Translations under genes and position numbers: made by a program | Part shown: positions 9,893 through 64,000 of the stretch, one piece after another | Layout of the letters: each line of letters starts with the position of its first letter | How positions within the stretch are numbered: the stretch's first letter is position 1 | Assembly: GCA_026770705.1 (NCBI GenBank) | Contig: JANJGN010000007.1 | Coordinates: forward strand, 109,926,001-109,990,000 | Direction of reading: 5' to 3' | Length of the DNA stretch: 64,000 bases | Source of the DNA: Isurus oxyrinchus | Lineage: Eukaryota | The notes under the pieces: generated by a model | What the model was told of the DNA's origin: nothing | Database searches by the model: none | Seen by the model: the letters and a program-made list of their open reading frames with translations, nothing else

Positions 9893-10566
9893 ATCGTCCG
9901 TTTTGAGGATGGCGATATTGTGACCAATGAAAATCACCTGGAAATTTCGTGCACCCTGAGAAAGCAACTGGCGGAGAGAGAGAAAGCAGTGCATTCGACG
10001 ACAGTTAGGGGAAGGAGTTAGAAAAATAGAGCCACAAAACTGGGAGGGAAGGCGAGTTCATGGCAGCCTGTGACGGGTGTTGATGGTTTGTTTTGGGGGT
10101 GTCAGGAAGCTTTGGCGCAACTTCCTGAGGACAAAGCCTTAATTTCATGAATTTGGGCCTCGACAGCGAAATATGGGCGCCGGGGAATGGGGGGTGGTGG
10201 AGTCAGTGAATTAAATTAGCTTTTTGTTTTACTTAATGTTCGTCATAGAATTATACGAAAAGCTCAGAAGCTACTTTCATCAATGATGTACTTGGGGTAT
10301 CGGTGGTACTTGATGTTTCTATTTTTGGTAGACACCGTAGAAATACCATATAAGTAGCTTTCATTTAAACACGACTCACCATTAAGTATTTCCATTCTTG
10401 TGAGTTTTTTCATTGGTTTATGAATTAAGTTACTCATCTCACTATGAAAAAAGTAAACTATTTTATTATGGGCCTTTCAATAATAGGAAACTCGACTGAT
10501 GTAAATACATTATTAACATTTGCAAGTAGTAGCCAAGTGTCACGTGATCAAAGGTAAGGCACAAGT

Positions 10567-10818
10567 TAAAAGCAAGATTCGGCGGATGCTGGAAATCTGA
10601 AATAAAAACAGAAAATGTTGGAAAAACTTAGTAGATATGACAGCATCTACATGACAGCATGGAAAACGAAACAGAGTTAATGTTCCGACTAGGCATGACT
10701 CTATAACTCTATTTGCTCTGATGAAGAGGCACACAGACTCGAAACGTTAACTCTTTTTCTCTCTCCTCAGGTGTTCTCAGGCCTGTTAAGTTTTACCAGC
10801 ACTTCCTGTTTTTATTTG
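10567..10818. mobile_element. Two oppositely oriented Penelope terminal-repeat fragments with a hammerhead motif
   Basis: gatgctggaaatctgaaataaaaacagaaaatg (minus) followed by CTGATGAAGAGGCACACAGACTCGAAACGTTAAC (plus); absent from paralogs at ~39570 and ~60315. Confidence 0.7.
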
Positions 10819-11099
10819 ACTCTATAACTTGCTGCGTTACAGATCGGCCTTGATTTCACTGAATGTCAAAACGTGCTGGGAGAGCTCAAAAGCCCGACTG
10901 TTGTTCCAATGACTTTAAGCATTGTATGAGAGAGGTCACATGATGTATCTTCAGAAATACATCAAAACCGAGTTCTGAACCCTTCTGTGACTCATGATTT
11001 TTACTACAGATGCCGGGATCTCTTTAATTTACCTGAAACTTTTGATATTTAGCTTCATGTTTCCACCACTCAGAATTTTATTTTCATCAATCCAAATCT

Positions 11100-11500
11100 C
11101 CTGCCGATTGATCCGGAGCTGCGCCCCTGTTCCAGTAATGGCCATCACCAATTATTTTTCGAGTTATTTATTATAAACCGCTGCGGGATAACAGATTTTT
11201 TACTCTTTTGGAGTCAAACAATTAAATTAAATAACATATTTGTATATAGGTGCGAAAAGCTAGCCAAATTTTGTATTCAGTAATGGAGGACAATTGAGAT
11301 GGACAACTATTCTTCACTAATCAAGCAGCTACCACAAGTTCGCTCCTTCAGAACAGGCCGGAGCATGTTGGAATACTATCTGTTCTATTTCATTATGCTT
11401 TATCTCACAACAACAGCGAAATTGCATTCACTGTTATCAAACAACAGCAGTAAGCGCAGGTTAATTGTACGGCTAAGCTCACCGTGCCTCCAATTAATTC
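11100..11500 (-). pseudogene. Candidate decayed VJ-type Ig exon (type C), unit I copy
   Basis: Minus strand reads AVQLTCAY ... SGL** ... TGTGAQLRIN across frameshifts. Confidence 0.35.
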
Positions 11501-12403
11501 AGTTGTCCGCTCACTTAAATTTATGTTCACTAAAAACTTTCTAATCTTCCTGAAGATGAAACTGTGAGGAGAAACTGAGAGAATGACTCACATTTTACTG
11601 ATTGCAAAGAGAAAGCTGAATTCAATGAAAGTATTTTTGAAGGTGTCAGGAAAAATGAGGAGGCTGCGAAAAACAGCGGGGATACTTGACTTATTAATAG
11701 AGAAACAGGGTACAGTGACGAAATGATTCTAAATCTTTATAAAGCGCCAGTTCGGCCTCGGCTGGAATCTTTTCTTCAACCTGAAGGATGTCAGAGACTT
11801 GCTGGACCTGCTGATTTTTCCAACATATTCTGTCTTTATTTCAGGTCTTCAGTATCCCTAGTATTTTGCTTTCATTATTCGCGAATACTCCTTGTTGCAT
11901 TTCAGGCCTGCTGTAATACTAAATGTAACATTGAAAGATATAGATATAGAATCAACATTTAATCTCCAGTATGGTGAAGGTAAAATTCACCTAACAGTTA
12001 TGGAATGTAAAAAGGGAGATGGGCAGGATTATTCATCGAAATTTCTATTCCAGTGAGCTCTATTACTATTCCGGTGGGTAAGACTGGTTGTGGTCTCGAT
12101 CGCAGTAGGCTCTAAATGCTCAGGAGTAAATATTTGCACACTCACATTTTCCATGCTCCTACATGAAGTCGAATGCATTAGGTGAAGTACTGGAGGACTG
12201 CCTGCGCCTGCGGCCTGCATCTTTAGTTTTAGGATAGGGTGAAGTATCAAACGTCGGTGTTGACAAAGAAGGTGATGGGAACGAAGTGTTCCGGGAGCGG
12301 CTGAGAAAGCATCACTCTTCAGGGGAGACCTTTTCAGCCGGCAGTTAGGAGGTGAACTTCAGCTTCCCAGACTCCACCACGGAAGAATAAACAGAACTGC
12401 TTT

Positions 12404-12532: not shown

Positions 12533-12587
12533 ATGTCGATGGAAGTTACAGTTCAGTAAATGACTCTTCTGGGCATGGTTTGGCCAG
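12533..12587 (+). pseudogene. Type-A leader exon (MSMEVTVQ*MTLLGMVWP)
   Basis: 55-nt exon ending CCAG|GTACC; TAA at 12557-12559 where the paralog has TAC. Confidence 0.8.
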
Positions 12588-12795: not shown

Positions 12796-13105
12796 CCGCC
12801 AGAGTAACTTCGAACAAAGTGGAATAGTTCCCGAAATATTTGAAGGTGCCCAGAGGTGCGAATATTTCCATGTTCTGCAGGCTCCTCATATCTCAAGGTC
12901 TTCCCGATGTTCGTTGGTGGAGACGCGGTGAGGAATCCTTTCTGGAACCAGTTAACAGAAAACGATTTGATGTTAAAAAAAAAAGCTAGTAGTTCGTTTG
13001 ACGTCCTGAATGTGACCTTTACAGATTCCGGGATGTATTATTGCAAAGTTAAGCATGGGCAAAATGTTTATGGAAATGGAGCAGGCGCCCAGTTCACTGT
13101 GCACG
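12796..13105 (+). pseudogene. Type-A germline-joined VJ exon
   Basis: KVE*FPKYLKVPRGANISMFC...DVRWWR...FDVLNVTFTDSGMYYCKVKHGQNVYGNGAGAQFTVH|gt; TAG at 12825-12827; frameshift in the A10 run 12975-12984. Confidence 0.92.
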
Positions 13106-15554: not shown

Positions 15555-15844
15555 TACCTCCAACACCACTGAAAATCGTTCCTGTTGAAGGGAACGACTT
15601 GTCTGAAACTCGAGTGTAAAACGGCTGCCTTTTACCCGGAGGATTTAAGAGTTTCCTGGCAAAGAGATGGTGTGGAAATTCTGACCGGAACAGAAACTGA
15701 AAAACGAGATCGTAGATGGACTCTACGAGGTCTCCAGTTCTTTGGATGAAGTACAGCCTGCCCGGAACACAGTCGTTTATACCTGTCTGGTGTGTCACGT
15801 CTCTCTTGAGGTGTCCGCCAGTGTCAGCTACACCATCAACCAAG
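15555..15844 (+). pseudogene. Type-A Ig C1-set exon
   Basis: VPPTPLKIVPVEG / LKLECKTAAFYPEDLRVSWQRDG / DGLYEVSSSL...YTCLVCHVSLEVSASVSYTINQ|gtgaga; two frameshifts; 290 nt. Confidence 0.9.
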
Positions 15845-16538: not shown

Positions 16539-17073
16539 GTAAAAGGTGTACGTGCCTTACTCTTAACAAACAACCCTCACGTCCAGAGAGAAGCTTCCTG
16601 CGTCTTTATCGATTTATTCCCTCCATAAATTGCGTTACTGGCTTCAGTTTATATTGTTTGGTACATATTATAATCCACGTGCGGCTACTGCCAATTTATG
16701 AAAGCCGTCGGTCCCCACTGAGATTAAGCGGTTACCCAAGAGACAGCTTTAGAGCTCGCCCTCCTGTGTCTGACACATAACTCCGTATATAAACCTCGCT
16801 GTGTTCGACAAGTTCTTATTTCAATCTTTTGTTGATCATGTAGGTATTGGTGTCAGTTTACGATGTAAAATGGCTTGCTGACTCTTTGTCACATGTCTTA
16901 CACTACCCCACACAAAGCAGTGTGCTCCATTGGATAGAGAGACACGACGAAGCACTTCAATTTTCAAGGTTCCTTCCTTTACACAGTAAAAGCGTTTAGC
17001 TTCGAAGTCGACTTATTGGTTTTGCTTGCACACTTATTCAGTTATTCAACGTGGATTTCTTCTCTTCCTTTAG

Positions 17074-17097
17074 GCGTTGAGAGAAATTTTGTGGAAG
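17074..17097 (+). pseudogene. Candidate 24-nt phase-1 micro-exon (GVERNFVE)
   Basis: tttcttctcttcctttag acceptor and GAAG|GTGATT donor; read-through would give GVERNFVEGD*. Confidence 0.5.
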
Positions 17098-17209
17098 GTG
17101 ATTAAAGTGAAGAGCCGATAGGGCGAAAATGTTCTTTATATTCCAAAAAGAGGGGTTCGCGGGTAACAGCAAGAAATATTGCAATCAGCCGAGAAGAATT
17201 TAATTAAGT

Positions 17210-18169: not shown

Positions 18170-19990
18170 TCACAAAGAGAATGCCAAGGGATATAGATAG
18201 GTTATGTGAATGAGCAAGAATTTGGCAGATGGAGTATGATGTGAGAAAAGGTGAAGTTATCTTCTTTGGAAGGAAGAGAAGAAAAATAGAATATCATTTA
18301 AATGAAATGAAACTACAGAATACTGTGGTACAGAGGATTTAAGACAAAGGTGAGGAGGAATTTATTCTCTCAAAGGGTTATGAGGGATGGGGGGCTGGAA
18401 ACAGGAAAGTGTTGTTGAGGCCAGAATCAGATCAGCCATGATCTCGTTGAATGGTCTACTCCTACTCCTGCCTCTTATGACCTTGTCGTTAACCTTTGCA
18501 ATTTTGTACCCAGAGAACAATGGAGGCTGGGTAATTGAATATATTCAATGCTGAATTATACAGATTTTCATCTACACGAGTGCCAAGGGTGATTTTTGGT
18601 GTGGGGTAGTTGCGGTGGGTCAGATGGTGGAAGGCAAGAAATACAGAACCAGAAACAACTTACCCTATGCCACTGTCCAAGCTAGCACCAGGAAAAAAAG
18701 ATAAACCCCATTCTGCCAGAGTAGAACACGGTACAGCTGAGTTAATTCATTGAAGCCCTATCATTGTTAAGTGGTATGACGCTAATGTGTAGGAATTGGA
18801 AAGGTTCCAGTTTTAATAAACTAATTGGTTTTGTCAATTGATCTCAGCCAAGGTTCATCAGATTTGCCTCACGTCCGAGAACAGAAAGACCTGGGAGTAT
18901 ATGTGCATCAATCTTTGAAGGTGGCTGGGCAAGGTAAGTGGGTGGTTTGCAAAGCATGTGGGATCTTGGGCTTCATATATAGATACATTAAGTGCAAAAG
19001 CATGGAAGTCATGTTGAACCTTTATACAGATTTACTTTGACCACAGAATATTACATCCAGTTCTGGTCACAACACTGTAGGGTATGTGGGTCTTTCGGAG
19101 GCTGTAGAGATGATGTACCAGAATAGTTCCATGCGTGGGAGATTTTGGGGGGAGATTTGATGAAGGTGTACAAGATTATAACAGCTTTAGAGAAGGTAGA
19201 CAAAGAAAAACTGTTTCTATTAGCTTCTATTAGAGGTTTACAAGAATGTTGCCAGGGTTAGAAAAGTGTAGCTACGAGGAGAGATTGGATAGGTTGGGGT
19301 TATTTTCCTTAGGAAAAAGAAAGCTGAAAGGTGACTCGATTGAGGTGTACAAAAGTAAGAGGGGAATAGATAGAGTGGATAGGATAAAATTGTTTCCCTT
19401 GCTGGAGAATTTTGAACCAGGGGACATAGATTCAGGATAAGTGGCAGAAGGTGTAGGGGATACATGAGGAAGAACTTTTTTACACAGAGGATAGTGGGTG
19501 TCTGCAATCTGCTGCCCAAGTTGGTGGTTGAGGCAGAAACTCTAAACTCTTTTAAAAAGTATCTGGATCTGCACCTTAAGTGCTGTAAACTGCAGGGCGA
19601 TGGGCCAGGTGCAGGAAGGTGGGCTTAGAAAGGGCATCTGGGTGTCCTCGGGCTGGCATGGATAAGATGGGCCGAATGGCCTCCTTCTGTGCTGTAACTT
19701 TTCTATGCTTCTATGGTTCTAGCTGATGGTACAGGGACAGAGTTAAGGACAAGAGACACAGGGGAAATCTGAGGGGAAAATTTTCAAACCGTGTGTAGTA
19801 ATGACCCATAATTTGCTGCCCACCAGGGCGGTGGAAGCAGAGATCAATGATTTCAAAAGGAATTGGCATGGGCACTTCAAGTTTACTTCCTTGCAGGTTT
19901 ACAGAGATAGGAGTCGGGGAATGGAACTGACGGAATTGCTCCGTGGAAAGCCTTTAGACTGGGTGGGCTGTATACCCACCCTCTGAGCTT
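18170..19990 (+). mobile_element. Cluster of CR1 3' fragments, with a younger copy (~19235-19720) nested in an older one
   Basis: MLPGLEKCSYEERLDRLGLFSL; TTCTATG tail at ~19700; the host resumes gctgatggtac. Confidence 0.75.
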
Positions 19991-20127
19991 CCAGTGGACT
20001 CTGACTTTAAACTGAATTTGATAATTGATGAGAGAAAATTTCATTACAGCCTTTTTTTAAACCCTGATTGCCTCAAGCAACGAACTGACGATAAACTAAC
20101 AGGTGACATTAAATATTACTTTCACAG

Positions 20128-20306
20128 ATTAAAGAGGCAGGAATAGCAAGCTGATTTACGCCACTCTGCAGCTCACTGATTCCAATAAAACATCAAAATC
20201 TTGACAGGAAGATGAACATGTAGTGTACGCAAAAGTGAACATGACAAAGAAAAAGAGAAGCAGAGAATCGAAAAACAATCCAATGATGAGTTTTTTATGC
20301 GTGTAG
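20128..20306 (+). pseudogene. Type-A terminal cytoplasmic exon with two ITIMs
   Basis: tactttcacag acceptor, then D*RGRNSKLIYATLQLTDSNKTSKS*QEDEHVVYAKVNMTKKKRSRESKNNPMMSFLCV*; Tyr codons at 20157 and 20226. Confidence 0.75.
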
Positions 20307-30089: not shown

Positions 30090-31360
30090 GTCTAGCGTTT
30101 TCTATTTGTTCAAAGAAGATGGCACGGCCAGCATTAATTATCCATCCCTAGTTACCCGTGAGAAGATGATGGTGAGCCCCTTCTTAAACCCTTGCATTCC
30201 ATGTGCTGCAGGTACACCCAGAGGGCTGTTGCAGAGGGCGATGGTGGGGTTGAGTTCCAGGAATTTGACCCAGGCACAGTGAAGGAATGGCAATATACTC
30301 CCAGGTCAGGATGGTGTCCGTTCTGGGCACCACACTTTAGGAAGAATGTGAAAGCAATAGAGAGAGTGCAAAAAATATTCAAAATGAAGGGTCTTGAGAT
30401 GTGAAATTTCAGTTCTGTGGAAAGATTGAAGAAGCTGGTGCTGCTCTTCTTGAAGAAGAGAGTTGCGAGGAGACTTGACAAGGGTGTTCAAAATAATGAG
30501 AGGTCTGGACAAAGTATGGAGGGAGACTGTATTGTCTTTGGCAGAAGGATCGTGAACCAGAGCTCAGGTGATTGGCAAAACAAGTGACAATGACATAAGG
30601 AAAAGCTATTACGCAGTGAGTGGCTAGGATCTGGAATGCACTGCCTGAGAGTGTTGGAAAGGGAGATTCAGTTGTGGCTTTGAAAAGAGAATTGATAATT
30701 ACCAAATAGAAAAGATTTGCAGGGCCGTGGAGACAAGGCTGTGGGATGGTGGTTGGGTGGGGAGGGGGGGTGATGGAGAGACGAGTTACGTTGTTCATGC
30801 AGAGACCTGGCAAGATCTTGATGGACTGAATTGCCTCTTCCTTTGCTTTAACCATTCTATGATGCTTGGTAGTTGAGGTGTTTAGAATGAATGATGCTAT
30901 CCAAGGAGCCTTAGTGAGTTGTTACAGTGCATATGTTGTTGCCACTGTGGGTCAATGGTGGAGGAAATTAAGGTTTAAGGAGATGGATGGGGTGTCAGAC
31001 AAGCTGGCTGCTTTGTCCTTGGTAGTGTCTAGTTTCTTGAGTGTGCTGGAGCCATATTCATCCAGGCAAGTGAACAATGTTCCATCACACACTTGATTTG
31101 TGCATTGGAGTTAATAAATAGGCTTTGGGGTCTCAGGTGGTGAGTTACTCGCTACAGAATTCCCAGTTTCTCAACTGGTCTTAGAAACATAGCATTTATA
31201 TAGATGGTCCAATTGGTATTCTTGTCAACAGCGAGATCAAGATGTTCACTGGGGCAGGGGGTGGGGGAGGTGGGGGCGGTTCCAGGTCTTGCTGCATATG
31301 GATTCGGATTGCTTCGGTATCTGAGGAGTTGTGAATGGTGCTGAACACGGTGCAATCATC
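30090..31360 (-). mobile_element. HER1-like LINE fragment with a CR1 3' fragment (+, ~30305-30862) inserted
   Basis: Paralogous to 2720-3640; the insert encodes FWAPHFRKNVKAIERVQK. Confidence 0.7.
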
Positions 31361-31449
31361 ACTTTACACGTGATGTCACCAACTTCTGACACGTTTCTCG
31401 TCTGAGCTTTTGTAAACCCACATAATCCGACATATCGACTGTCACGTGC

Positions 31450-33474
31450 TTACATGCATTGATCCAATTGCTTTGTTTCTAAGTATATTGACCCTGGCGA
31501 TTGCACACACCGGTACAAGTGTTTATTTTAGGATTTACATCAGGTTTCTGATGGTGATTGGGGATTCCATTGTCGGACAAATACCCTGCCCTCAAATTTC
31601 CGCTCAAACGAACAAACATCACCTGATAGGGCATCTTCCCATTCTTTCAAGAGGAGTAAGGTGTAGAAGTTCTCTGGTGGAGACACGATAACCAGCAGCA
31701 CTTGAACAACGAGGAAGCGAAAAAGAGACAACATAATCTTCCATTAAAGGGGGGAGATTCCCTCTGCCTCTTGAATTCATGAATGTGAGATTCAAAGAGC
31801 CTGTCCGTTATTACTGCTACGTGTACTGTCGGGAAGGATAGTCGGGGATAGAACCGACTCAGAGATCCTTGCGCCTGTTGAGTCGCAGGTTCTGGATGTT
31901 GCAGGAGTCAATCGTGCAACAGGTACTTGGTAAAATTCCATCGAGATAGCGAAGAGTGTGGGAATGGGACACCTGTCCAGGTTTTTGTATTTACTGCCAG
32001 CATCAAACCAGCCTAGGAGTAAGATTACCGATTCATAGAGAAGCTTTTTTGCAAGTGTTTTTCTTTAATGTAGCCAGATATATATGTGTTAAAGTTTACA
32101 ATCTCATTGCTGTGAAAGCATAATCCATATCTTTTTTCAATAAAAGGTAACGGGATAAAAACGTCAATGAGACGAACTGCATTACCTTTTCAGAACCAAC
32201 TTAGCACATTGAGCAAATATATCCCTACATCGCATCGTTGTATGACACTGTAAACAGGTAAACTGCGATTCGGTAACCAAGGGGCTCGGATTTAAGAAAA
32301 ATTGGCAGAAGAACAACAAACGAGGGGAGAAGAAATTGTTTTACAAGGTAAATTGCTCTGATCTGGAATTCACTACATGGAAGCAGGAATAGTAATTTTC
32401 AAGGGGGAAATTGGATAGATACTTAGAAATAAAAGCATGGCTTTGGAGAAAGAGCAGGAAAGTGAAACTAATTGCACAGCTCTTTCAATGAGCCAATACA
32501 GGCAGTGTAGCCCGAATGGCCTCGCGGTATGCTCCATGATTCAGTAATTCTAGAATATACATTACTCTATTCAAGGCTCCATGTACTTTCTAGCTCCGTG
32601 TTAAATAATGACTGAAAACAAAGACAGTAAAAACGCTCCAATGAAACATGACGTTAAAGGGCCTGTCCTGAGCTTGTCTCTAAATTACAGACCGCAATAA
32701 TAAAATAATAATTAATATTTCAAAAGCAAAATCATTTTCTTCTCCTCCCAATGTTGTCCATTCATCTGAGCTTCGACCCGATTGAGTCTAAATTCTGTAC
32801 AGCCAGTTCACAGACTCTCCTGTGCAAAACAGCTCAGTTTTAACCTGAAGATCCCCATGTGACTCGATGTTAAGAACAAAGCGAAAACTGGAACCGGTGC
32901 CAATACTCCGAAGCAGCGAACCACGGTGTGAATCTACGAGCCTTCCAGCACTTTAAAACATGTGGCATTAACCAGCAATGAAGCTATATGCAGCTGCCAA
33001 GTATCTCATCTTTCTCTTCAGACTGCAACATTGTCACTTAGAAGGGTGAAGGTACGGACATTTTTGTTTCAGAAACTCTTGCTCGTTTGTCGTTTTTCTT
33101 AATACAAGGACGTCTGTGAACACGTTAGCATTTGACGCTCTTTTTTCCTTCGTTATATTCAGGGTTTATTGGTTCGATTGTAATTTTTTTTAACTTGGCA
33201 TTTATTTCAAGATTTTTAAAACATATCTGTATTTGTGTTAAATAGTCATTAGACGATTTGCTCTGATCCCGTATATCCCTTTGGTTTTCTTGTTGGTGCT
33301 GATTTTATTGATATTACGCCTGTCGGCCTTATATCTCTGCTGCTCGTTGGTTGCAGTCGCTGCTAACGTCGTTTTCCTCTATTTGGCATTCGGCATTTAG
33401 TGGGAATATTGGGTATAATGGTGCTAAGTGGCAACGCTGGGCTCTATTTGAAGCTGAGGTACTGCCAAAAATGA
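31450..33474 (+). pseudogene. Type-B VJ-C1-TM short-tail receptor pseudogene, copy 1
   Basis: V ~31545-31877 (KYPALKFPLKRTNIT**GIFPFFQEE*GVEVLWWRHD...EFMNVRFKEPVRYYC...IVGDRTDSEIL, donor TTGAGT); C1 32752-33051 (LLCKTAQF*PED...IYEPSSTL...SCQVSHLSLQT); TM 33357-33474 ending YLKLRYCQK*; AATAAA at ~33528. Confidence 0.8.
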
Positions 33475-33849
33475 GAGACGCCTTTATTACCAGAGCGAAT
33501 CATCACTTTAAAAGATGAAACTTTTGCAATAAATCCGCAAATAAAGTCGCGCTAACCGATAGGAAATGAACATCAATGTTCTTTGAAGGTGGACACGTAG
33601 ACCACGGTTTACACATTGAAAGTAATGAGATATCATCACGGAAAATAGCTGATGCACAGTTCCGACCATTGTTACTCAGGGCGAGCAATATCTTGCAGGA
33701 GACAGCGACCTCCTCTGGTCGATCTGGAGCAGCGACGTTTCGAAGACGTTTGGAGGATTTCCATGTTCTAGGGAAATGGTGGAAGTGTTTAAAAGAAGCA
33801 ATATAGCATTTCACTAAAAAAGCAGCCAGGCGAAATTATTCTCCGTTAT

Positions 33850-34250
33850 TAAACGAAAATAAAATGCCAACTTTTGAAGAATAGTCATTGTTTTGATTGG
33901 AAAGCGTCACTGTAAGCTTTTGCACAGCAAATCCACAAATTAGCAACGTGATCATGACCGGGTAACCTGTTTTTTGCCTGATGTTCATTATGATAAATGT
34001 TAGTCCGGACATTGGGGAAAACGCCTCTGTTATTCCTCAAAATACTGCCATGGGATCCTGGACGTTCACCCAAGAGGGCAGTGGGAATCTAGGTTGAACT
34101 TCGCATTGGGAAGACAGCGCCTCACAATGCAGCACTCGCTCAGTACTGCACTGGAATACCAATCTAAATTGGTGGTGCTCAAGTCCTGGAGTGGGAATTG
34201 AACACACAACTTTCTCAGGAGTGCTAACAACTGAACAATTGCTGACATTC
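33850..34250 (-). mobile_element. Ancient tRNA-derived SINE (SacSINE1/Deu-like); a related copy lies at ~57200-57600
   Basis: gacagcgcctcacaatgcagcactcgctcagtactgcactgg core and ggagtgggaattgaacacacaac B-box-like head. Confidence 0.5.
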
Positions 34251-36769: not shown

Positions 36770-38985
36770 GAAGGTGAACGTCCCTCATCTCCTCAGGAGA
36801 TCTTCCCTCCACAGCTTCCAACCTCATAGTCTCACAGTCCCGGATTGCCCGCTTCTACCCCCTCCACAAAATCCACAAGCAGGAAAGCAGGACTGTCCAG
36901 GTAGACAGATCGTGTCAGCCTGTTCCTGCCCCATGGAAATCATTTCTTCCTATTTACTCCGTTCTCTCGCCCCTTGTCCAGTCTCTTGCCACCTACATCG
37001 GCGACTCCTCTGATGCCCTACTTCATGTCAAAAATTTCCAGTTTCCTGCCCCTGTCTGCCTCCTCTTCACCATGGACGTCCAATCTGTCTACACCTCCAT
37101 TCCCCCACCAGGGGATAGTCTGAGGGCTCTCCGCTTCTTCCTCGAACAGAGGCCCAAACAATTCCCATCCACCACGACTCTACTCCATCTGGCTGAACTT
37201 GTTCCAGCACTGAACAGATTCTCATTAAACGAATCTCACTTCCTCGAAATTAAAGGTGTGGCTACGGGTACCCCCATGAGCCCCGGTTATGCCTGTCTCT
37301 TTATGGGGTATGTAGAACATTCTTTGCTCCAATCCTACTCAGGACCATTCCCACAACTCTTTTTGGCACATTGATGAATGTTTCAGTGCCACTTCATGCT
37401 CTCGTTTGGACCTGGAAAAGTTTTATCAACTTTTCTTCCAAATTCCACCCCTCCATCACCTTCACATGGCCCATTTACGACACTTCCCTTCCCTTCCTTG
37501 ACCTCTCTGTCTCAATTTGTGTTGATAGACTGTCCTCCAATATTCATTACAAGTCCACCGACTCTTACAGCTATCTCGGCTGCAGCTCCTCACATCCTGC
37601 TTCTTGTAAGGACCGCATCCTGTTCCCTCAGTTCCTACGCCTCTGTTCAGCTGTTCCAATTATGCCACTATCCAAAACGACACTTCCGACATGTCTTCCT
37701 TCTTCCTTAATCAAGGTTTCCCACCGACTATGGTTGAAAGGATCCTCAACCATGTCCTACCCATCTCCTACACCTTTGCTCTCTCTCCTTCCTCTCCTTC
37801 CAAGAACCATGATAGGGTTCCCCTTGTACTCACTTTCCATCCCACTAGAGTCCACGTTCAAAGGATCATCCACCACCAACTCCAGCATGATGCCACCACC
37901 AAACATGTCTTCCCTTCACCCTCCCTGCCTTCAGCATTCTGTAGGAACCATGAACACCCTGGTCTACTCCTCAAACACCCCCAACACCTTATCTCCTTCC
38001 CATGGTATCTTCCCATGCAATCGAAGAAGGTGCAACACCTGGCCCTTTACCTCCTCCCTCCTCATCACCCAAGGGCCCAAACATTCCTTTCAGGTGAAGC
38101 AGCGCTTCACTTGCACCTCATTCAATTTAGCCTACTGCATCCGCTGCTCCCGATGTGGTCTCCTCTACATTGAGGAGACCAAATGCAGGCTGGGTGGCTG
38201 CTTTGTGGAACATCTTCAGCCTGTCTGCAAGCATAACCCAGACATTCCTGTCACTTGCCATTTCAAAACATGATCCTGCTCTCATGCCCACATGTCCATC
38301 CCTGACATTCTGCACTATTCAAGTGAAGCCCAAAGCAAACTGGAGGAACACCACCTCAACTTCTAATTAGGCACTTTACAGCCTTCCGGACTTAACATTG
38401 AGTTCAATAACTTCAGGCCATGAACTCTTTCCTCTATCCACGCCCCCTTTTTACATTATTTTTCGATATTCATTTTCATTTTTTATTTTTATCCACTTAT
38501 TTTTTATTTATTGTTTTATCCCCACACTTTATAGTATTTTCTATATTGTATCCCAAAGACCATCCCCTCCCCCATCTCTCCCCCACAAGAGTCATCTGTC
38601 ACTGCTTCATGTTCTTCTTTTCAGAGTATTTTCCCTTGTCCGGCTATTATCACATTCTGCTTTCTTACATTAATGCCACTATCAGCACATCCTTTAGCCC
38701 TTATCACTACCATTAACACCTCCTTTGACCATTTGTTCATGACATCTTTGCCAATCTCTCTTTGCCCCCACCTATCACTGGCCTTCAATCCCGCTTCACC
38801 TGTTCCGCCGCCTTAAACAGTATCAATTTCATCACATTTTTACTTCTCTTTAGCTCTGAAGAAGAGTCATATGGACTCGAAACATTATTTTCTCTCCGCA
38901 GATGGGGTTAGACCTGCTGAGCTTTTCCTGCATTTTCTGTTTTTGTTTCCGACTTCCAGCATCCGCAGTATTTTGCTTTTATCTT
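36770..38985 (+). mobile_element. Penelope-like element (RT, GIY-YIG and terminal repeat), frameshifted
   Basis: FTMDVQSVYTSIP, IKGVATGTPMSPGYACLFMG, LPFLDLSVSI, CIRCSRCGLLYIEETKCRLG; inserted between blocks that are near each other in unit I. Confidence 0.88.
38856..38885 (+). ncRNA. Minimal hammerhead-ribozyme core in the Penelope terminal repeat
   Basis: CTGAAGA-A-GAGTC-ATATG-GACTC-GAAA with a perfect 5-bp stem II; stem III region looks degraded. Confidence 0.5.
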
Positions 38986-40016
38986 GAGGATGGCGACATC
39001 GGGACCAACGAAAACCGCCTGCAAATTTCGTCCTGAGAGAGCAACTGGGAGCGAGAGAGAGAGAGAGAGCGACGCAAATGACGAGGAGAGAGAAACTGTA
39101 GAGGTGGGGGTGCAGGGTGGTGGGGTGGAGAATGATAGACCAACACATGCTGGAGAGAAGGCGAGTTCGTGGAGGCCTGTGACGGACGCTGATGGTTTGT
39201 TCTGCGGAGTCAGGCAGCTTCGGCGCTGCTTCCTGAGGACAGAGTCTTAATTTCATGAAGCTGGGCCTGTATGCAGTGAATTGATTCAGCTCTTGTTTTA
39301 TTTAACGTTCGTCATAAAATTATACGAAAAGCTCAGTTAAATGTTGCTTACATTCATGATGTTATTCTTGAATCATTTGCATTTACTTGATGTTTCTCAT
39401 TGTTTTAACACCCTAGAAATGCCACAGAGTAGCTTTTATTTAAACGTTACTCATCCCGCCATAAATCAGAGTCAAATATTTTATTTTGGGTTTGGTAATA
39501 ATACGAAACTCAACTAATGTAAACTCCTAAACATTTGCAAGTCATCGTCAAGTGTCACGTGATCAAATGTAAGGTATAATTTGTTGAGTTACAGATATCA
39601 GACATGATTTCACTGAATGGCAAAACATGCTGGGAGAGCTAAATACCCGGACTTATTCATATGTCATTCTGCATTATATAAGAGACGTCACATGATTGAA
39701 TCCTCAGGGATACACCAAAATAGATTTGCCAACCACTTTGTGACTCATTAGTTTTTCTACGGATGCCGAGCCTCATTAATGTTCTTCCAATATTTGATAA
39801 TTAATTTCATATTTCCAACATTCATAATTTTATTTTCATTAATCCAAATCTTCTGTTGATTGAGATATTATTGATCCTTCGCATACACTTACCCCCTTCA
39901 CTGTTTATTAACCCACTGCCAGTGTTTCTAATAGAAAATGTCATGCACCTTTCTTCTTCCCCCTCAGAATTTTAGTGGCAGTCACGAGAGAGATCACAAA
40001 CAACTGTGACACTCAC

Positions 40017-40370
40017 TTGGGTCGGTGATCTGGAGCTGCGCCCCTGTTCAAGCGATGACCATCACCAATTCCTTTTCGAATTATCCATTATAAACCCCTG
40101 CGGGATAACAGATTTGTTTATAGGTGAGAAGAGCTGGCCAATTATTGGATTCAATAAGGGAGGACTGTTGAGGTGAACAACTATTCTTCACTAATCAAGC
40201 AGCTACCACAAGTTCGCTCTCTCAGAACAGGCCGGAGCAAGTGGGAACACTATCTGTTCTATTTCATTATCCTATACCTCACAACAAGAGTGAATTTGCA
40301 TTCGTTGCTACCAAACGGCAGCAGTAAACGCAGGTTAATTGCACGGTTAACCGCCCTCTGCATCTAATTA
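40017..40370 (-). pseudogene. Candidate decayed VJ-type Ig exon (type C), unit II copy
   Basis: Minus strand: LTVQLTCVY ... L*TNLLSRRGL*W ... IA*TGAQLQITDP, then a phase-1 GTGAGT donor (40016-40011). Confidence 0.4.
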
Positions 40371-40524
40371 GTTCAGATCTTAGCTCACTTACATTTATGT
40401 TTGTTAAAGACCTGCCTAATCTTTCCAGTCTTTCTGAAGACTGAACTGAGGAGAAACTGACAGAATGGCTCACATTTTAGTGAATGCAACGAGAAAAGAG
40501 ATTCCAATGAAAGTAAATGCCTTG

Positions 40525-41359: not shown

Positions 41360-42330
41360 AGAGATGATATTGCCCTTGGCAGAAGGATCATGAGCCAGCG
41401 CCAGCCATTTAAGGTGATTGGCAAACCAAGCAACAGTGACACGAGGAAAACTGGTTTATGCAGCGACTGGCTAGGGTCTGAAATGCACTGCCTGAGAGTG
41501 AGGGGGAGGCAGATTCAGTTGTGGCATTCAAAATGGAATTGGATAGTTACCTAAATAGAAAAGATTTGCTGGGCCATGGAGGAAGGGCGGGTGGGGAGAC
41601 GAGTTAAATTGTTCTTGCAGAGAGCTGGCACGGTCCTGATGGACCAAATGGCCTCTTTCTATGCTTGAGCCATTCTATGATTCCAGGTATTTGAGGTGTA
41701 GGGCTGGGAATGGGTGGTGATATCCAAGGAGCCTTGCTGAGTTCCTGCTGTGCATCGTGCAGATGTTGCTGCCACTGTGGGTCAATGGTGGAGGAAGTGA
41801 ATGTTTCAGATGATGGATGGGATACCTATCAAGTGGGCAGCTTTGTCCTCGATAGTGTCCAGTTCCTTCAGTATGCTGAGGCCACATTAATTCAGGCAAG
41901 TGAAGAATATTCCACCACACACTCGGTTTGTGCCTTGTAGACAATGGACAGGCTTCAGAGTGTTAGGTGGTGAATTACTCTCAACAGAATTCTCAGCCTC
42001 TGACATGATTTTGCAAACACAGTTTTCATATGGCCACTGTAATTGATATTCTTATCAACAGCGAGATCAAGATGTTTACTGGGTGAGGGGTGGGGGTGGA
42101 GAGAGTTTCAGCGCCAGTAATACCTTTGAATGTCAAGGATGGTGGGTGGATTCTCCTTTGCTGGAAGTGGTCATTGCCTGGCACGAATTGTGGCGCGAAT
42201 GTCACTTGCCTCTTATCGATCAAAGTCTGAAAGTTTCCAGGTCTTCCTGCATATGGACACGGATTGCTTCAGTATCTGAGGACTTGTGAATGGTGCAGAA
42301 CACAGTGCAATCATCAGCAAAGCTTCCCCA
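41360..42330. mobile_element. CR1 tail (+) and HER1-like fragment (-), paralogous to 30530-31360
   Basis: Shared junction cattctatga followed by the LINE body. Confidence 0.7.
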
Positions 42331-42419
42331 CTTTACACGTGGTGTCACCAACTTCTGACATATTCCTCGTCTGAGCTTTGTGAACTCAGTCAATCTGAAC
42401 CATCGACTGCCACTTGCTT

Positions 42420-44376
42420 ACTTGCATTGATTCAATTGCTTTGTTTCTATGTATACTGACCCTGGGGATTAAACACGAGAGTGCAGATGTTTATTCTAGT
42501 GTCTACGTTAGCTTTCTGATGGTGATTGGGGATTCCGCAGTCGGCCAAATACCCTGCCCTCAAATTTCCGCTCAAACGAACAAACATCACTTGATAGGGC
42601 ATCTTCCCATTCTTTCAAGAGGAGTCAGGTGTGGAGGTTCACTGGTGGCGACACGATAACCAGGAGCACTTAGACGACGAGGAAGCGAAAAAGAGACAAT
42701 ATAATCTTCCATTAAAGGGGGGACACGCCCTCTGCCTCTTGAATTCTTGAATGTGAGATTCAAAGAATCTGTCCTCTATTACTACTATGTGTACAGTCGG
42801 GAAGGATAGTCGGGGATAGAACCGGCTCAGAGATCCTTGCGCCTGTTGAGTCGCAGGGTCTGGATATTGCAGGAGTCAATCGTGCAACAAGTACTTGGCG
42901 AAATTCCATCGATATAGCGAAGAGTGTGGGAATGGGACATCTGCCCAGGTTCTTATATTTAGTGCCAGCAGCAAACCAGCCTAGGGCTAAGATTATGGAC
43001 TTACAGGGAAGCTTGATTGCAAGTGTTTTTTCTTTAATGTAGCCGGTTATATATTTGTTAAAGTTTACAATTTCGTTACTGTGGAAGCATGATCCATACT
43101 TTTTTTAAAGGTAAGTGAATAAAAACGCCAATAAGGCGAACTAGATTACTTTTTCGGGGCCAATTTAGCACACTGAGTAAATGCATTCCTACACTGCAAA
43201 GTAGTATGACTCTAACCAGGTAAACTATGATTCGATAACCAACGGGTCCAGATTTACGAACATTGACTAAAGAACAACAGGAATTTCCTGCCTGGAAACA
43301 GCAATAGTAATTTTCGGGGGTGGGGGGGTGTAGGTGGAATTGGATAGATACTACCAAATAAATTCAGGGCTTTGCAGAAAGAGCTGTAGAGTGAGGTTAA
43401 TTGCATTGTTCTTTCAAAGAGCCAATACAGACACTATGGGCTGAATGCTCCATGACTCAGGACATATATCAATTTTCTTTCTCTTTTTAAGAGTCCATAT
43501 AATTTCTAGTTCATGTTCAATAACGCTTGAAGACGCAGAAGTTAAAAACGCTCCAATAAAACACCACGTTAAAGGACCTGTCCTAAAATTATGTTTTAAA
43601 TTACAGGCTACAGAAATAAAATAATAATTAATATTTCAAAATCAAAATCATTTTCTTTTCCTCCCAATTTTTTTCATTCTTCTGATTGAGTCTAAATTCT
43701 GTCCAGCCATTTCACCAACTCCACTGCGCAAATCAGTTGTTTTACCCTGAAGATCTCAGTGTAACTCCAGTTTAGGAACCATGCGACAATTAGAACAGGG
43801 ACCAACACTCCGAAGCAACGAACCACGGTGGGAATGTACGAGCCTTCCAGCACTTTAAGGTATACGGCATCAACCAGCAGTGGAGCTGCATACAGCTGCC
43901 AAGAGTGTCATCTTTCTCTTCAGACTCCAACATTGTCAATTAGAAATGTGAATGTAAGGTCATTTTTTTTTCAAAAACTCTTGCTCGTTTGTCGCCTCTC
44001 TTAATACAAGGGCGTTTGTGAATGCATGTTAGCATTTGGCGCTGTTGCATTCCTTTGTCACATTATGGATTTAATGCTTCAATCGCATTTTGTTATTTGT
44101 TGGCATTTATTTGAATATTTTTAAAACATCTGTGTTTGTATTAAATGTCGATTAAACGATTTGTTCTGATCCTGTGTGTCCCTTTGGTTTTTTTGTTGGT
44201 GCTGGTTTTATTGATATTACGAATGTTGGCCTTACATCTCTGCAACTCTTTGTTTGCATGCGCTTCTAACGTCGTTGTCGTCTCTTTGACGTTCGGATTT
44301 ACTGGGTAGATTGGTAATAATGGCGCTGATTGGTTTCGTTGGGGATTATTTGAAGCTGAGGTGCTGCCAAAGGTGA
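42420..44376 (+). pseudogene. Type-B VJ-C1-TM short-tail receptor pseudogene, copy 2
   Basis: V ~42515-42845 (GIFPFFQEESGVEVHWWRHD...EFLNVRFKESVLYYYYV...IVGDRTGSEIL); C1 ~43668-43953 (FYPEDLSVT...GMYEPSSTL...AYSCQECHLSLQTP); TM ~44260-44376 ending YLKLRCCQR*; AATAAA at ~44429. Confidence 0.8.
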
Positions 44377-45549
44377 GAAGCACCTTTATTACCAGAACGC
44401 AGCGTCGCTTTGAAGATCAAACTTTTGCAATAAATCTGCAAACAAAGTCGCGCTAACCGATAGGGGATGAAAATGAATGTTCTTAAATGATGGACATTTG
44501 GATCACACTTCACACATTGAAAGTAATGAGATATTCTCCCGGGAAATAGCTGATGCACAGTTCCGACAATTGTTGCTCCAGACAAGCAGTATCTTGCGAG
44601 AGACAACGACCTCCTCTGGAGTAGCAACATTGCGAATTTATTTGGGGAGTTACCATGTTGTGGGGAAATGGTGGAAGCAATTTTTAAAAAGCCATATAAG
44701 ATTGCACCAGAAAGGGCAGCCAGACAAAATTTTTCTAAGTTATTGCACGAGCGTAAAATGCCAACCGCCTCGATAACAGGCTAATGATTTGTTTTTTTAC
44801 ATCCTTCACGGTCACCAGAATTGCCAGAGCGCTTTGCAGTCAACATTTGAAGTAAGGTCATTGTTTTGATTAGGAAACGTCACTGAAAACTGCGCACAGC
44901 AAATCCACAAATTAGCAACGTGATTATTAGCAGATAACCAGTGTTTTTGCGTGGTCTTGATTGAGTGATGGAACGATTCGATCATTGAAATTATGAAAGA
45001 GCTTGATATGGTTGATCCAGAGAAAATGTGTTCACTCGTGATGGAATCCATTTCTACAGGGCAGAAATGGATAGTCATAAATTAATCCAATAGGTAATTC
45101 GTGAGAAGATTTTATACCCAGTAAGTGGTAAGAATGTGGAGTATGCGAGAGAAACGGGTAACTGAGGAGAATAGACTACACAAGTTTAAAGGGGAAGATT
45201 GATATACATATGAGGCAGGAAGAAATATGCAGATTGGGATAGAAGAAGAGGACGGAGAAGCATAAATGCCAGCATATATCAGCTGGGCCGAATAGCCTAT
45301 TTTGTGCTGTAGGCTCTATGCATTTGTATGCAATGTAGAACAGAACATGTTAGAAACACTTGATGAGAAAAATAAGTTAACGGTTCAGTCATAGCCCTTC
45401 ATCAGAACTGGAAAAATGAAGAGGAAATCACAAATGACACAGATGTTTATATCATGTCTTAAAAGTAGAAAGACGTACTGAAATGTTTCCAAAGAACTAA
45501 CCAAAAAGAAAAATACACCCAGTCAAATAAATCGTATTAAAAGGGAGGA

Positions 45550-59620: not shown

Positions 59621-60902
59621 CCATGAGGAACCTATGAGCTGCCTTGAACCCTAACTGGCCCGAAGATCCTCCTAATAACACTATTAATAACGTTAGTAAA
59701 TTGTTCATTCTTAATAACTTATGAATCCTCTTTATTTCCTGCTCACACCTTCCCGACTCTCCTGCTTGCCATCTTTCTTGCTTTTCCTGCTCTCCGCTTC
59801 CCCCCGCCGCTCCCACTCACAGCTTCTCTCTCCCAGCCATCCGTAAACAGCGGGAGTGTAAAAGAATCCTGAGGGTTATTGCTGGCGACTCGAAAGAAAC
59901 GGTGCTTGTACCGTTCGTGTTAATGCAGGCCTAGTAACCTGGCTGCTTACAGTCAATTCACGTTATCCGGGCACTGCTATTTACCCACCTGTACCGAAAC
60001 GCCGCTTCATTGCAGGTTTTGAGGATAGCGACAGCGGGACCAGCTAATATCAACTGGAAATTTCGTGCGTCCTGAGACAGCAACTGGGAAAGAGAAACAT
60101 ACCGTAGAAACGCCACATAAGTAGCTTTTATTTAAACATTACTCACCATTAAATCTCTTCTTGGGAGTTTTTTTTTTCATTGATTTATCAATTACATTAC
60201 TGATCTCACTATACGACAAAGAGATACATTTTATTTTGGGGTTAGCAATAATAAGCTCAACTAATGTAAACACTTTAACATTTGCAGCTCGTCGCGTGTC
60301 ACGCAACAAATTTAAGGTATAAATTGTTGGGTTACAGACCAGGCATTATTCCACTGAATGGCAAAACCTACTGGGAGAGCCCAAAGAGTCCTTTGACCTT
60401 AAGCATTACATGAGAGATGACACATGGTGGAATCTTCAAGAATACATCAAAATAGATTTGCCGACCCTCCTGTGACTCATGACTCTTCCTACGGATGCCG
60501 AGGCCTCATTAATGTACTTCCAATATTTGACATTTAATTTCATTCCCAACATTCATAATTTTATTTTCATTAATCCAAATCTTTTGTTGATGTGATATCA
60601 GTGATCTCTCGCGTATACTTATCCCCTTTACTGGTTATTAACTCACTGCAAGTGTTTCTACTGGAAAATGTCATGCACCTTTTTCTTCCCGCTCAGAATT
60701 TCAGTAGCAGTCACGAGATCACAAACAACTGTGCAATTCAATCGGATCGGATCTGGAGCTGCACCCCTGTTCAAGTGATGACCATCAACAATTCTTTTTC
60801 GAGTTATCCATTATAAACCCCTGCGGAATAACAGATTTGTAACTCTTTCAGAGTCACAAACAATTAAACTAAATTAACTAAATGAGGGATAAATAACAGG
60901 TT

Positions 60903-60995
60903 TGTAACTCTTTCGAGTACAAACCCGTTTCTATCTGTTTCAGATGAAGTTACATTGTTTCATAGTTTTGCTATTGTGAGATTTGAACTCTTGAT
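60903..60995 (-). mobile_element. 5'-truncated tRNA-Thr-derived SINE (copy A)
   Basis: Matches the 3' ~93 bp of copies B and C. Confidence 0.75.
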
Positions 60996-61240
60996 AATCT
61001 TTTAAATGAAAACCAAATCAACAAAATCGGGATAAATCAGGCACAGCCCCTAATTCAGGTCAGCTGTAAAACCAAGAACAAAGTTTAAAGGAAACTTACA
61101 AACTTTAAATCAAAATGTGATTAAAGGGGTCAACAAAACACCCCAGTCCCCGCGGTGCCCACGGAAGGCCTCGAGAGTGCCAGCAGACACCGCGTGCTCC
61201 CTCTCGAGGGACATCCGGCAGCGAATGTAGCCGCGGATAA
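60996..61240 (-). mobile_element. Tx1-clade LINE 3' end
   Basis: Minus translation RGYIRCRMSLEREHAVSAGTLEAFR / APRGLGCFVDPFNHILI* resembles the Tx1 ORF2 C-terminus; followed by a T-rich UTR. Confidence 0.6.
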
Positions 61241-61262
61241 TGATCCGGGGTGACATCGGTCT

Positions 61263-61409
61263 TGTAACTCTTTCGAGTACAAACCTGTTTCCATCTGTTC
61301 CTATTCAGATGAAGTGACATTGTTTCATAGTTTGCCATTGTGAGATTTAAACTCTTGATTTTGGGGTTACAAACCCAGTACCATAACCACTTGGCTATTT
61401 AGGCCAAGC
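61263..61409 (-). mobile_element. tRNA-Thr(UGU)-derived short SINE (copy B)
   Basis: Minus: GCTTGGCCTAAATAGCCAAGTGGTTATGGTACTGGGTTTGTAACCCCAAAATCAAGAGTTTAAATCTCAC...; A box, TTTGTAA anticodon loop, B-box-like; 3' end CGAAAGAGTTACA. Confidence 0.75.
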
Positions 61410-61420
61410 CATAGCAGGTT

Positions 61421-61562
61421 TGTAACTCTTTCGAGTACAAACCCGTTTCCATCTGTTTCAGATGAAGTTACATTGTTTCATAGTTTGCCATTGTGAGATT
61501 TGAACTCTTAATCTTGGGGTTACAAACCCAGTACCATAACCACTTGGCTATTCAGGCCAAGC
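61421..61562 (-). mobile_element. tRNA-Thr(UGU)-derived short SINE (copy C)
   Basis: Tandem with copy B; GAGTTCAAATC B box; flanked by ATA(G/A)CAGGTTTGTA. Confidence 0.75.
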
Positions 61563-62019
61563 CATAACAGGTTTGTATATAGGCTCAAAGCGCTGGCCAA
61601 TTATTGGATTCAATAAGGGAGGACAGTTGAGGTGGACAACTATCCTTCACTAATCAAGCAGCTACCACAAGTTCGCTCCTTCAGAACAGGCCCGAGCAAG
61701 TGGGAATACTACACGTTCTATTTCCTCACACAAAGAGTGATTTTGCGTTGGCTGTTACCGAAAGACAGCGGCAAGCGCAGGTTAATTGCATAGCTAAGCG
61801 CCCCATGGCTCTAATTAGTTCAGATGTCAGCTCACTTATATTTGTGTTTACTAAACACCTGCCGCCTTTCCTACCCTTCCTAAAGATGGAACTGTGAGGA
61901 GGAACTGAGAGAATAGCTCACATTTTACTGATTGCAAAGAGAAAGGAGATTTCGGTGAAAGTAAAGACCTCGGGGCGTTCGCACAATTTTTGGTGGTGTT
62001 AGGACAAATGAGGAGGCTG

Positions 62020-63480: not shown

Positions 63481-63535
63481 ATGTCGATACAAGCTACAGT
63501 TCAGTACATGACTCTTCTGCGCATGGTTTGGCCAG
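63481..63535 (+). CDS. Type-A receptor copy 2, leader exon (MSIQATVQYMTLLRMVWP)
   Basis: Open 55-nt phase-1 exon, CCAG|GTACC donor; paralog of 12533-12587. Confidence 0.75.
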
Positions 63536-63736: not shown

Positions 63737-64000
63737 CTGCTGGAGCAACTTCGAACAAACTGGAGCAGTTCCCTAAAGACTTGGACGTGACCAGTGGCGC
63801 GAATGTTTCCATATTCTGCAGATTTCCCATATTTCAAGGTTTTCCTGATGTTCGTTGGTGGAAACGCGACGAGGAAACCTTTCTGGAACCAGATAGCAGA
63901 AAGCGAGTTGATGTAAAAAAAGGAAGTAGTTCGTTTGACATCCTGAATGTGACTTTTACAGACTCCGGGGTGTATTATTGCAAAGTAAGGCATAGGCAAA
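63737..64000 (+). CDS. Type-A receptor copy 2, V exon (partial; open to the window end)
   Basis: tttttttgatag acceptor; AAGATSNKLEQFPKDLDVTSGANVSIFCRFPIFQGFPDVRWWKRDEETFLEPDSRKRVDVKKGSSSFDILNVTFTDSGVYYCKVRHRQ with no stop; canonical Cys-Trp-DxGxYxC; two N-glycosylation sequons. Confidence 0.85.

Follow-up and report, generated by a model that had tools for sequence, protein, structure and literature searches.

The window analysed here is a stretch of 64,000 nucleotides on C7 of Isurus oxyrinchus. It holds the remains of one receptor gene, copy W, and the first two exons of a second, gene G, both of a type in which a leader is followed by a V exon, a C1 exon, a transmembrane (TM) exon and a series of tail exons. 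Positions without a prefix are those of the window.

12533..12587, plus strand: leader exon of copy W, with TAA at 12557 (copy alignment, exon models)
12796..13105, plus strand: single V exon of copy W with a germline-joined J-like end, and TAG at 12825 (exon models; Pfam on intact paralogs)
15555..15844, plus strand: C1 exon of copy W (copy alignment, exon models, Pfam)
16844..16857, plus strand: stub of the TM exon of copy W, 14 bases (alignment to gene G)
17074..17117, plus strand: first tail exon of copy W, with TAA at 17103 and the donor AT instead of GT (exon models)
18630..18730, plus strand, ends approximate: decayed relic of the third tail exon (LPYATV) of copy W (tail-exon search)
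20128..20264, plus strand: dead terminal tail exon of copy W (homologous copies, exon models, stop scan)
63481..63535, plus strand: open leader exon of gene G (exon models)
63737..64000, continuing to 64042 past the window, plus strand: open V(J) exon of gene G (exon models, Pfam)
C7:109992739-109998660: C1, TM, first tail exon and dead terminal exon of gene G (exon models)

Copy W is a pseudogene. Its V exon has 310 bases compared to 306 in intact copies and its C1 exon has 290 compared to 297, so that both are frameshifted. Relative to gene G, a deletion of 523 bases at 16857/16858 has left only 14 bases of the TM exon. With stops at 12557, 12825, 17103, 20130 and 20202, the TM deleted and the donor lost, W lacks the open frame plus TM of an ITIM receptor.

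Two further V-C1 copies on the plus strand (31482-33024 and 42526-43932) are decayed members of a second subfamily of the same receptor family. They lie in a 2.6-kb duplication (31280-33871 and 42235-44765, 79% identity) and have better-preserved relatives at C7:109735382 and C7:109784999. The non-coding region upstream of the leaders of W (9903-11633) and G (60194-61965) occurs a third time at 38984-40517, and no leader or V exon was found behind this third copy. Short local repeats of ~100-160 bases with 89-95% identity are inserted upstream of G relative to W (60893-61577). At 1135-1875 there is a head-to-tail duplication of ~370 bases with 99.5% identity, which is either very recent or an assembly artefact.

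A genome-wide DNA search with the terminal exon returned seven matches from seven candidates, all on C7 at 109.77-110.05 Mb, and a local search of 350 kb added an eighth. The copies were named A, B, C, D, E, W (window), G (the 63481 copy) and H. For every one of the eight terminal exons there is a same-strand C1 exon 4.5-10.5 kb upstream, each copy has a single C1 exon, and a leader and V exon were found upstream in seven; for C, none was found within the fetched stretch. In one of the two protein searches with the V and C1 exons, the 49 matches (89 candidates) all lay on C7, with a few exons double-counted, and in the other 56 of 91 lay on C7. These matches fall mainly into two clusters, at 96.4-97.6 and 108.6-110.05 Mb; the counts on C7 are lower bounds and include broken copies. 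The cluster sequence read amounts to ~650 kb of roughly 2.6 Mb. One copy, gene B, is intact.

C7:109810211-109819817, plus strand: gene B (locus L045), the sole fully open inhibitory-type copy among the eight

Gene B is ordered leader, V(J), C1, TM, first tail exon (44 bases, phase 1 in and phase 0 out), second (111 bases), third and terminal exon, the last of which closes three phase-0 tail exons. Every exon is open and the phases match, the acceptor of the third tail exon being a weaker call. Gene B therefore carries an open leader-V-C1-TM-tail frame with an ITIM and a neutral TM. The tail has six tyrosines in three similar modules, and a 15-base in-frame deletion in the third tail exon removes the hydrophobic +3 residue of the first motif there. 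A protein of the cloudy catshark and models from horn shark (P0023, P0010, P0011) have the same six-tyrosine tail with the same exon junctions. Among the other copies, A has a neutral TM and stays open as far as the first tail exon, but tail exons 2 and 3 are gone and the motif frame is lost; its terminal exon has a 4-base deletion ahead of motif 1, and the terminal exon of H lacks 2 bases. D is open apart from its C1 donor, which is AT. Copies C, E, H and W are damaged in the ectodomain or at its splice sites. Only B, D, E and H yielded a second tail exon, which was not found in W, C or G.

The AG acceptor preceding the terminal exon of W ends at 20127 (TTTCACAG). An initial annotation, made from the window sequence, had placed two tyrosine motifs and two in-frame stops here, and re-reading of the letters bore this out: LIYATL (20151-20168) and VVYAKV (20220-20237) share one frame at a spacing of 23 codons, the in-frame stops lie at 20130 (TAA) and 20202 (TGA), and TAG 20304-20306 ends the frame. 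Both motifs satisfy the ITIM definition (S/I/V/L)xYxx(I/V/L) taken from an excerpt of PMC12151841. The description of both as ITIMs thus stands for the consensus fit in W, but across the copies only the first motif is conserved as a canonical ITIM. In copies A, D, E and H and in the horn-shark models, position -2 of the second motif is an Ala, which makes its perfect fit in W lineage-specific.

The motifs taken by themselves are no more frequent than expected. Across the six frames of the 64-kb window there are 178 matches to the ITIM consensus, and the six close pairs (same frame, 15-35 codons apart) compare with a mean of 6.1 (range 2-13) in 30 shuffles, so the identity of the exon was decided by homology. 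A chance motif pair or a piece of a repeat family would suit this frequency. However, all seven genome-wide DNA matches and the local eighth lie behind C1 exons of the cluster, and the translated exon matches the C-terminus of P0005 (56% over 43 residues), one of the proteins modelled in other sharks whose C-termini the terminal-exon sequence matches. Membership of a repeat family, which the initial annotation had raised against its own reading, is at odds with the finding that all eight copies are in register with receptor genes. The probability of a chance or repeat origin is vanishingly small.

The phase-1 acceptor that had been thought to fit the upstream exons did not survive comparison with the other copies. 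The terminal exon of W is 4 bases short at its 5' end relative to intact copies (copy alignment), and because these bases are missing its motifs seem to be in phase 1; read in that phase, the first full codon is TAA. The upstream tail exons, a first of 44 and a second of 111 bases, end in phase 0, and the motifs are open in phase 0 in three of the eight copies (B, D and E). Phase 1 for W and phase 2 for copy H had been considered for the terminal exon and were dropped after these upstream exons were defined. The homologous coding part of the W exon stops at 20264, the stop position of intact B, and not at 20306, and no acceptor phase yields both motifs.

Could the exon still be used, through exon skipping, a cryptic splice site or stop read-through? 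The exon keeps an intact acceptor and polypyrimidine tract, its two motifs have hardly changed, a phase-1 GT precedes the stop in the first tail exon of W, and AG sites within the terminal exon could reach motif 1. Those internal AG sites, however, are preceded by purine-rich sequence, TGA 20202 splits the motifs regardless, and the host gene has stops in its leader and V exons and no TM. The preservation of the motifs is explained by a divergence of only 7-9% within the group formed by C, W and G. We consider continued use extremely unlikely. The proposed link to the V(J)-C1 exons was right in that the segment is a tail exon of the upstream V(J)-C1 gene, but it is not a hidden usable exon, as W is broken in every exon. 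We are highly confident that the segment from 20128 on is a real, dead ITIM exon and the relic of an inhibitory tail.

A search for the homologous exon behind the 63481 copy had been proposed beforehand, and the exon is present there, at C7:109998471. It is not usable in gene G either, since the frame ends in the first tail exon, 3.7 kb ahead of the terminal-exon copy. Four lesions are common to C, W and G and absent from the other five copies: a stop in the first tail exon (base 30), a donor of that exon reading AT instead of GT, a terminal exon that is 4 bases short at its start, and a stop between the two motifs of the terminal exon. Their presence in three loci shows that these lesions are not assembly errors, and they are older than the private damage of W. 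The TM codons differ too: C and G read TTT CGA TGG (Phe-Arg-Trp) compared to TTT GGA (Phe-Gly) in A, B, D, E and H. For W, whose TM exon is deleted, the Arg is presumed from its clade.

In gene G the leader, V, C1 and TM exons are open with GT/AG junctions, and the tail exons are dead or missing. Given the stop in the first tail exon and the TM Arg, G is predicted to encode leader-V-C1-TM(Arg) with a 14-residue tail that has no tyrosine. A poly(A) scan found ATTAAA 129 bases into the first tail exon of G, and it is also present in H. The genome contains an FcR-gamma-like TM exon with an acidic residue and a second zeta-family exon. The pN/pS of the terminal exon was 0.87-1.49 in three pairs within C/W/G and 0.14-1.7 in five pairs among A/B/D/E, with 1-3 synonymous differences each, and that of the V and C1 exons of G was 0.42-0.95 against all partners. 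With so few changes, pN/pS over the terminal, V, C1 and TM exons gave no separation of dead from live exons. In six presumed-RNA runs, four on gene G and four on the TM-tail part of gene B, no cross-exon piece or joint occurred among the matches listed, and depth was almost confined to repeats; the tissue of these runs is unlabelled, so they have no bearing on the expression of G or B.

Homologue searches returned 10 and 24 proteins, and all with a visible species name were cartilaginous; the first ten had 65-80% identity over the V exon. A profile search (E up to 1e-30) returned 97 proteins, some of them long multi-Ig non-members. In a species check of 30 of 150 listed proteins, all 23 of family size (229-493 residues) came from sharks, rays or Callorhinchus, and the 7 longer multi-domain proteins were chondrichthyan in 2 cases and from turtle, teleost, frog and coelacanth in 5. 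The database models have the same V-C1-TM layout and terminal tail sequence as the cluster genes. They are labelled 'SHPS-1/SIRP-alpha-like', 'NCR3LG1-like', 'tapasin-related-like' or 'Ig lambda-like' (P0005, P0010, P0004, P0023; XP_062923465, XP_007902824), labels that are inconsistent and apparently automatic. No description of the family was found in the titles and abstract beginnings of the literature searched, and the excerpts of PMC3964593, PMC6795676 and PMC4701786 hold nothing on it. AMFR and BBS2 exons lie ~100 and ~170 kb past copy H (C7:110150002-110221705; loci L088, L091 and L095), on the one flank read.

Pfam assigns the second domain to the C1-set, as does its fold, for which MHC II beta-2 and the constant domains of IgNAR came up as matches. 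In the first domain, I-set scores slightly over V-set, the cysteine spacing is compact at 54-60 residues in 57 proteins (54 in the W/G subfamily), unlike in UrIg, NCR3 and their kin, and the domain ends in GxG(S/T)xLxV with no preceding Phe or Trp. 'VJ' is for these reasons a fair but loose label. Fold searches with the sawfish member P0012 (mean pLDDT 90) confirmed two Ig domains without singling out one family; there was a tie between Ig light chains, B7-type proteins, butyrophilins, VNAR and MHC domains. Identity as a rearranging Ig or TCR gene was rejected: the J-like end is inside the V exon, and around seven V exons no heptamer-spacer-nonamer was found, only bare heptamers.

Across the family, a charged TM goes with a short tail. 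The comparison covered 65 proteins, each 200-500 residues long and containing a C1 motif as well as a called TM; Arg/Lys was counted in the outer TM, and proteins for which no TM was called were set aside. No ITIM/ITSM-like motif was found in 15 of the 18 proteins with a TM Arg/Lys compared to 17 of the 47 without (Fisher p 0.0008, which is overstated since the proteins are related gene models, some of them truncated). Median tails were 29 and 88 residues, respectively. By eye, the Arg is often at the TM position of G, as in P0040, P0049, P0054, P0055 and P0107. A tail loss with Phe-Arg-Trp as in C/W/G occurred in none of the fetched database proteins, and the W copy is a pseudogene. In the catshark model P0004 the Arg is one residue further along the TM than in G and the tail ends just past the first tail exon; P0004 is possibly an independent switch. 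On the ectodomain tree, built from 49 database rows and five of our own genes by a quick search without a shuffle control and with 17 rows that had neither trait excluded, the Arg types were scattered, with 16 changes among 53 labelled rows. The 19 Arg rows were not a clade, and a single-clade constraint was rejected (p 8e-6); the labels set by hand include ITIM type for P0026 and P0038 and Arg type for P0034 and P0087, despite the one motif present in each of the latter two.

These observations bear on what became of the C/W/G clade. Its tail may simply have been lost, leaving a non-signalling decoy or a decaying gene in which the TM Arg is incidental. Tail loss does happen without an Arg, as copy A lost its motifs with a neutral TM and the 17 non-Arg proteins above lack them. 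Moreover, two of the three clade members (C and W) are broken pseudogenes, so G may be on the same decay path, and pN/pS resolved no signal of selection. Against this, four exons of G remain open and keep their GT/AG junctions, in contrast to its three tail exons, which are either dead or missing, and its Arg is at a position seen in short-tailed members of other species. We regard the decoy or decay account as unlikely, and lean towards the C/W/G clade being activating. The Arg may have been gained before the tail was lost or after it.

The history of the cluster is mosaic. In the tail tree C, W and G form a group (100/99) with H as sister, and in the V and C1 trees G groups with H (99/99 and 100/98). 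AU tests rejected C+G+W on C1 (p 0.00025), G+W on V (p 0.0005) and G+H on the tail (p 0.007); the groups were picked after the trees had been seen, and the V alignment of H has a long branch from an insertion. D and E have a G-like ectodomain joined to a B-like tail. The ectodomains of A and B are closest to that of a third gene, M1, and a more distant member also has a TM Arg.

C7:109360500-109364930, minus strand: gene M1 (locus L067), with open leader, V and C1, 400 kb upstream
C7:109228698-109232083, minus strand: distant cluster member (locus L101) with Phe-Arg-His in the TM, the Arg apparently at the position of G

The TM exon of M1 bears an Arg, is of a different, unrelated type and resembles that of catshark P0003/P0014. 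From its sequence, M1 is likely to be an older activating partner of B. Since ectodomains and tails are demonstrably shuffled in the cluster and other Arg-type genes occur there, the Arg TM exon of C/W/G could have come from an older activating cluster gene by recombination, which would be tail swapping and not a fresh switch. However, the TM region of C and G groups with that of the inhibitory-type H (100% bootstrap), and their Arg codon is one base from the H codon. The nearby Arg gene M1 has an unrelated TM exon, within the part of the cluster that was read, and the relic tail exons are in place behind the Arg TM exon. This makes recombination very unlikely, and a change within the clade remains our preferred reading.

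The cluster shares its logic with the paired receptors of mammals. According to an excerpt of PMC3210942, ITIM tails are there set against charged TMs, activating forms are derived from inhibitory ones (KIR, Ly49, PIR, KLRC) and homogenisation is restricted to the ectodomain. The shark cluster is like these systems in its clustering, its split into ITIM-tail and charged-TM forms, its homogenised ectodomains and its distinct signalling parts: B lies in one cluster with G and M1, and the ectodomain tree is discordant with the tree of the signalling parts, in agreement with ectodomain-restricted homogenisation as that excerpt describes it. The likeness is one of the same logic on a V(J)-C1 scaffold, and not a shown homology.

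The V plus C1 ectodomain, the multi-tyrosine inhibitory tail and the short-tailed partners resemble SIRP-alpha and SIRP-beta. In a search of solved sequences SIRP-alpha came second (E 1.4e-12), equalled by an Ig light chain (E 2e-12), and SIRP clusters were among the top Atlas matches. SIRP ectodomains are V-C1-C1, the TM Lys of SIRP is central, and the SIRP locus adjoins NSFL1C. In contrast, the shark copies have one C1, and the TM Arg, where present, lies towards the outer end; two C1 occur in P0006, a bamboo-shark model. SEP-domain matches lay on C12 and C5, with none of the four on C7, and the one cluster flank read contains AMFR and BBS2.

Judging from excerpts of PMC12227049 and PMC10751288, UrIg, UrIg2, NCR3/NKp30 and PRARP are like the shark genes in having the J-like end within the V exon, and UrIg also has C1 domains; UrIg is secreted only, with three C1 domains, and UrIg and NCR3 are MHC-linked. 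The shark genes have one C1 followed by TM and tail exons, and not the VJ plus at least three C1 of UrIg/UrIg2. Of 33 MHC class I matches, 31 lay on C21, two on C16 and none on C7, so that there is no MHC linkage, unlike NCR3 and UrIg. The NITRs of ray-finned fish are likewise a clustered multigene family with J-like motifs in a single exon and TM and tail exons, but they consist of V plus I domains, and holostean NITRs are flanked by runx1 and donson (an excerpt of bioRxiv 2021.06.11.448072); the second domain of the shark genes is C1-set and not I-type.

Taken together, we consider it probable that the dead exon in the window is the final exon of a pseudogene belonging to a tandem array of V(J)-C1-TM receptors that do not rearrange, and that its death accompanied the conversion of an inhibitory receptor, ancestral to C, W and G, into an activating one. 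By analogy, intact relatives of W may recruit SHP-1/2; from established receptor biology, B-type receptors would bind SHP-1, SHP-2 or SHP-2L through their phosphorylated motifs. G would pair through its Arg with the acidic residue of an adaptor of the FcR-gamma or CD3-zeta type and activate. Loss of the tail would have been the functional switch in the C/W/G ancestor, and exchange of V and C1 between neighbours may keep the opposing receptors matched. The tail of W would have been dead from the outset, by inheritance, and the loss of the TM exon and of the ectodomain frame would have followed.

The W exon itself is an ordinary pseudogene remnant, and its value is as a marker of the direction of receptor change. 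Dead ITIM exons behind a short-tailed, Arg-bearing gene point to an activating-type receptor derived from an inhibitory one. An excerpt of PMC3210942 describes this pattern for KIR and Ly49 in mammals; a cartilaginous fish now shows it on a scaffold like that of antigen receptors. One coherent family is concealed behind labels such as 'SIRP-alpha-like' or 'tapasin-like'. Its members are candidates for the on/off balance of shark innate or T cells, with B putatively inhibitory and G and M1 putatively activating. More broadly, we put forward, as a proposal for and against which the balance is even, that cartilaginous fish own a large and apparently undescribed paired-receptor system of ~50 V(J)-C1 units on one chromosome, by AMFR/BBS2. 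This system would give rise to activating receptors again and again, through a single-base exchange of Gly for Arg at one TM site together with loss of the ITIM tail, with C/W/G as one such switch that has kept its fossil brake exons, and it may be the sharks' equivalent of KIR/LILR/SIRP.
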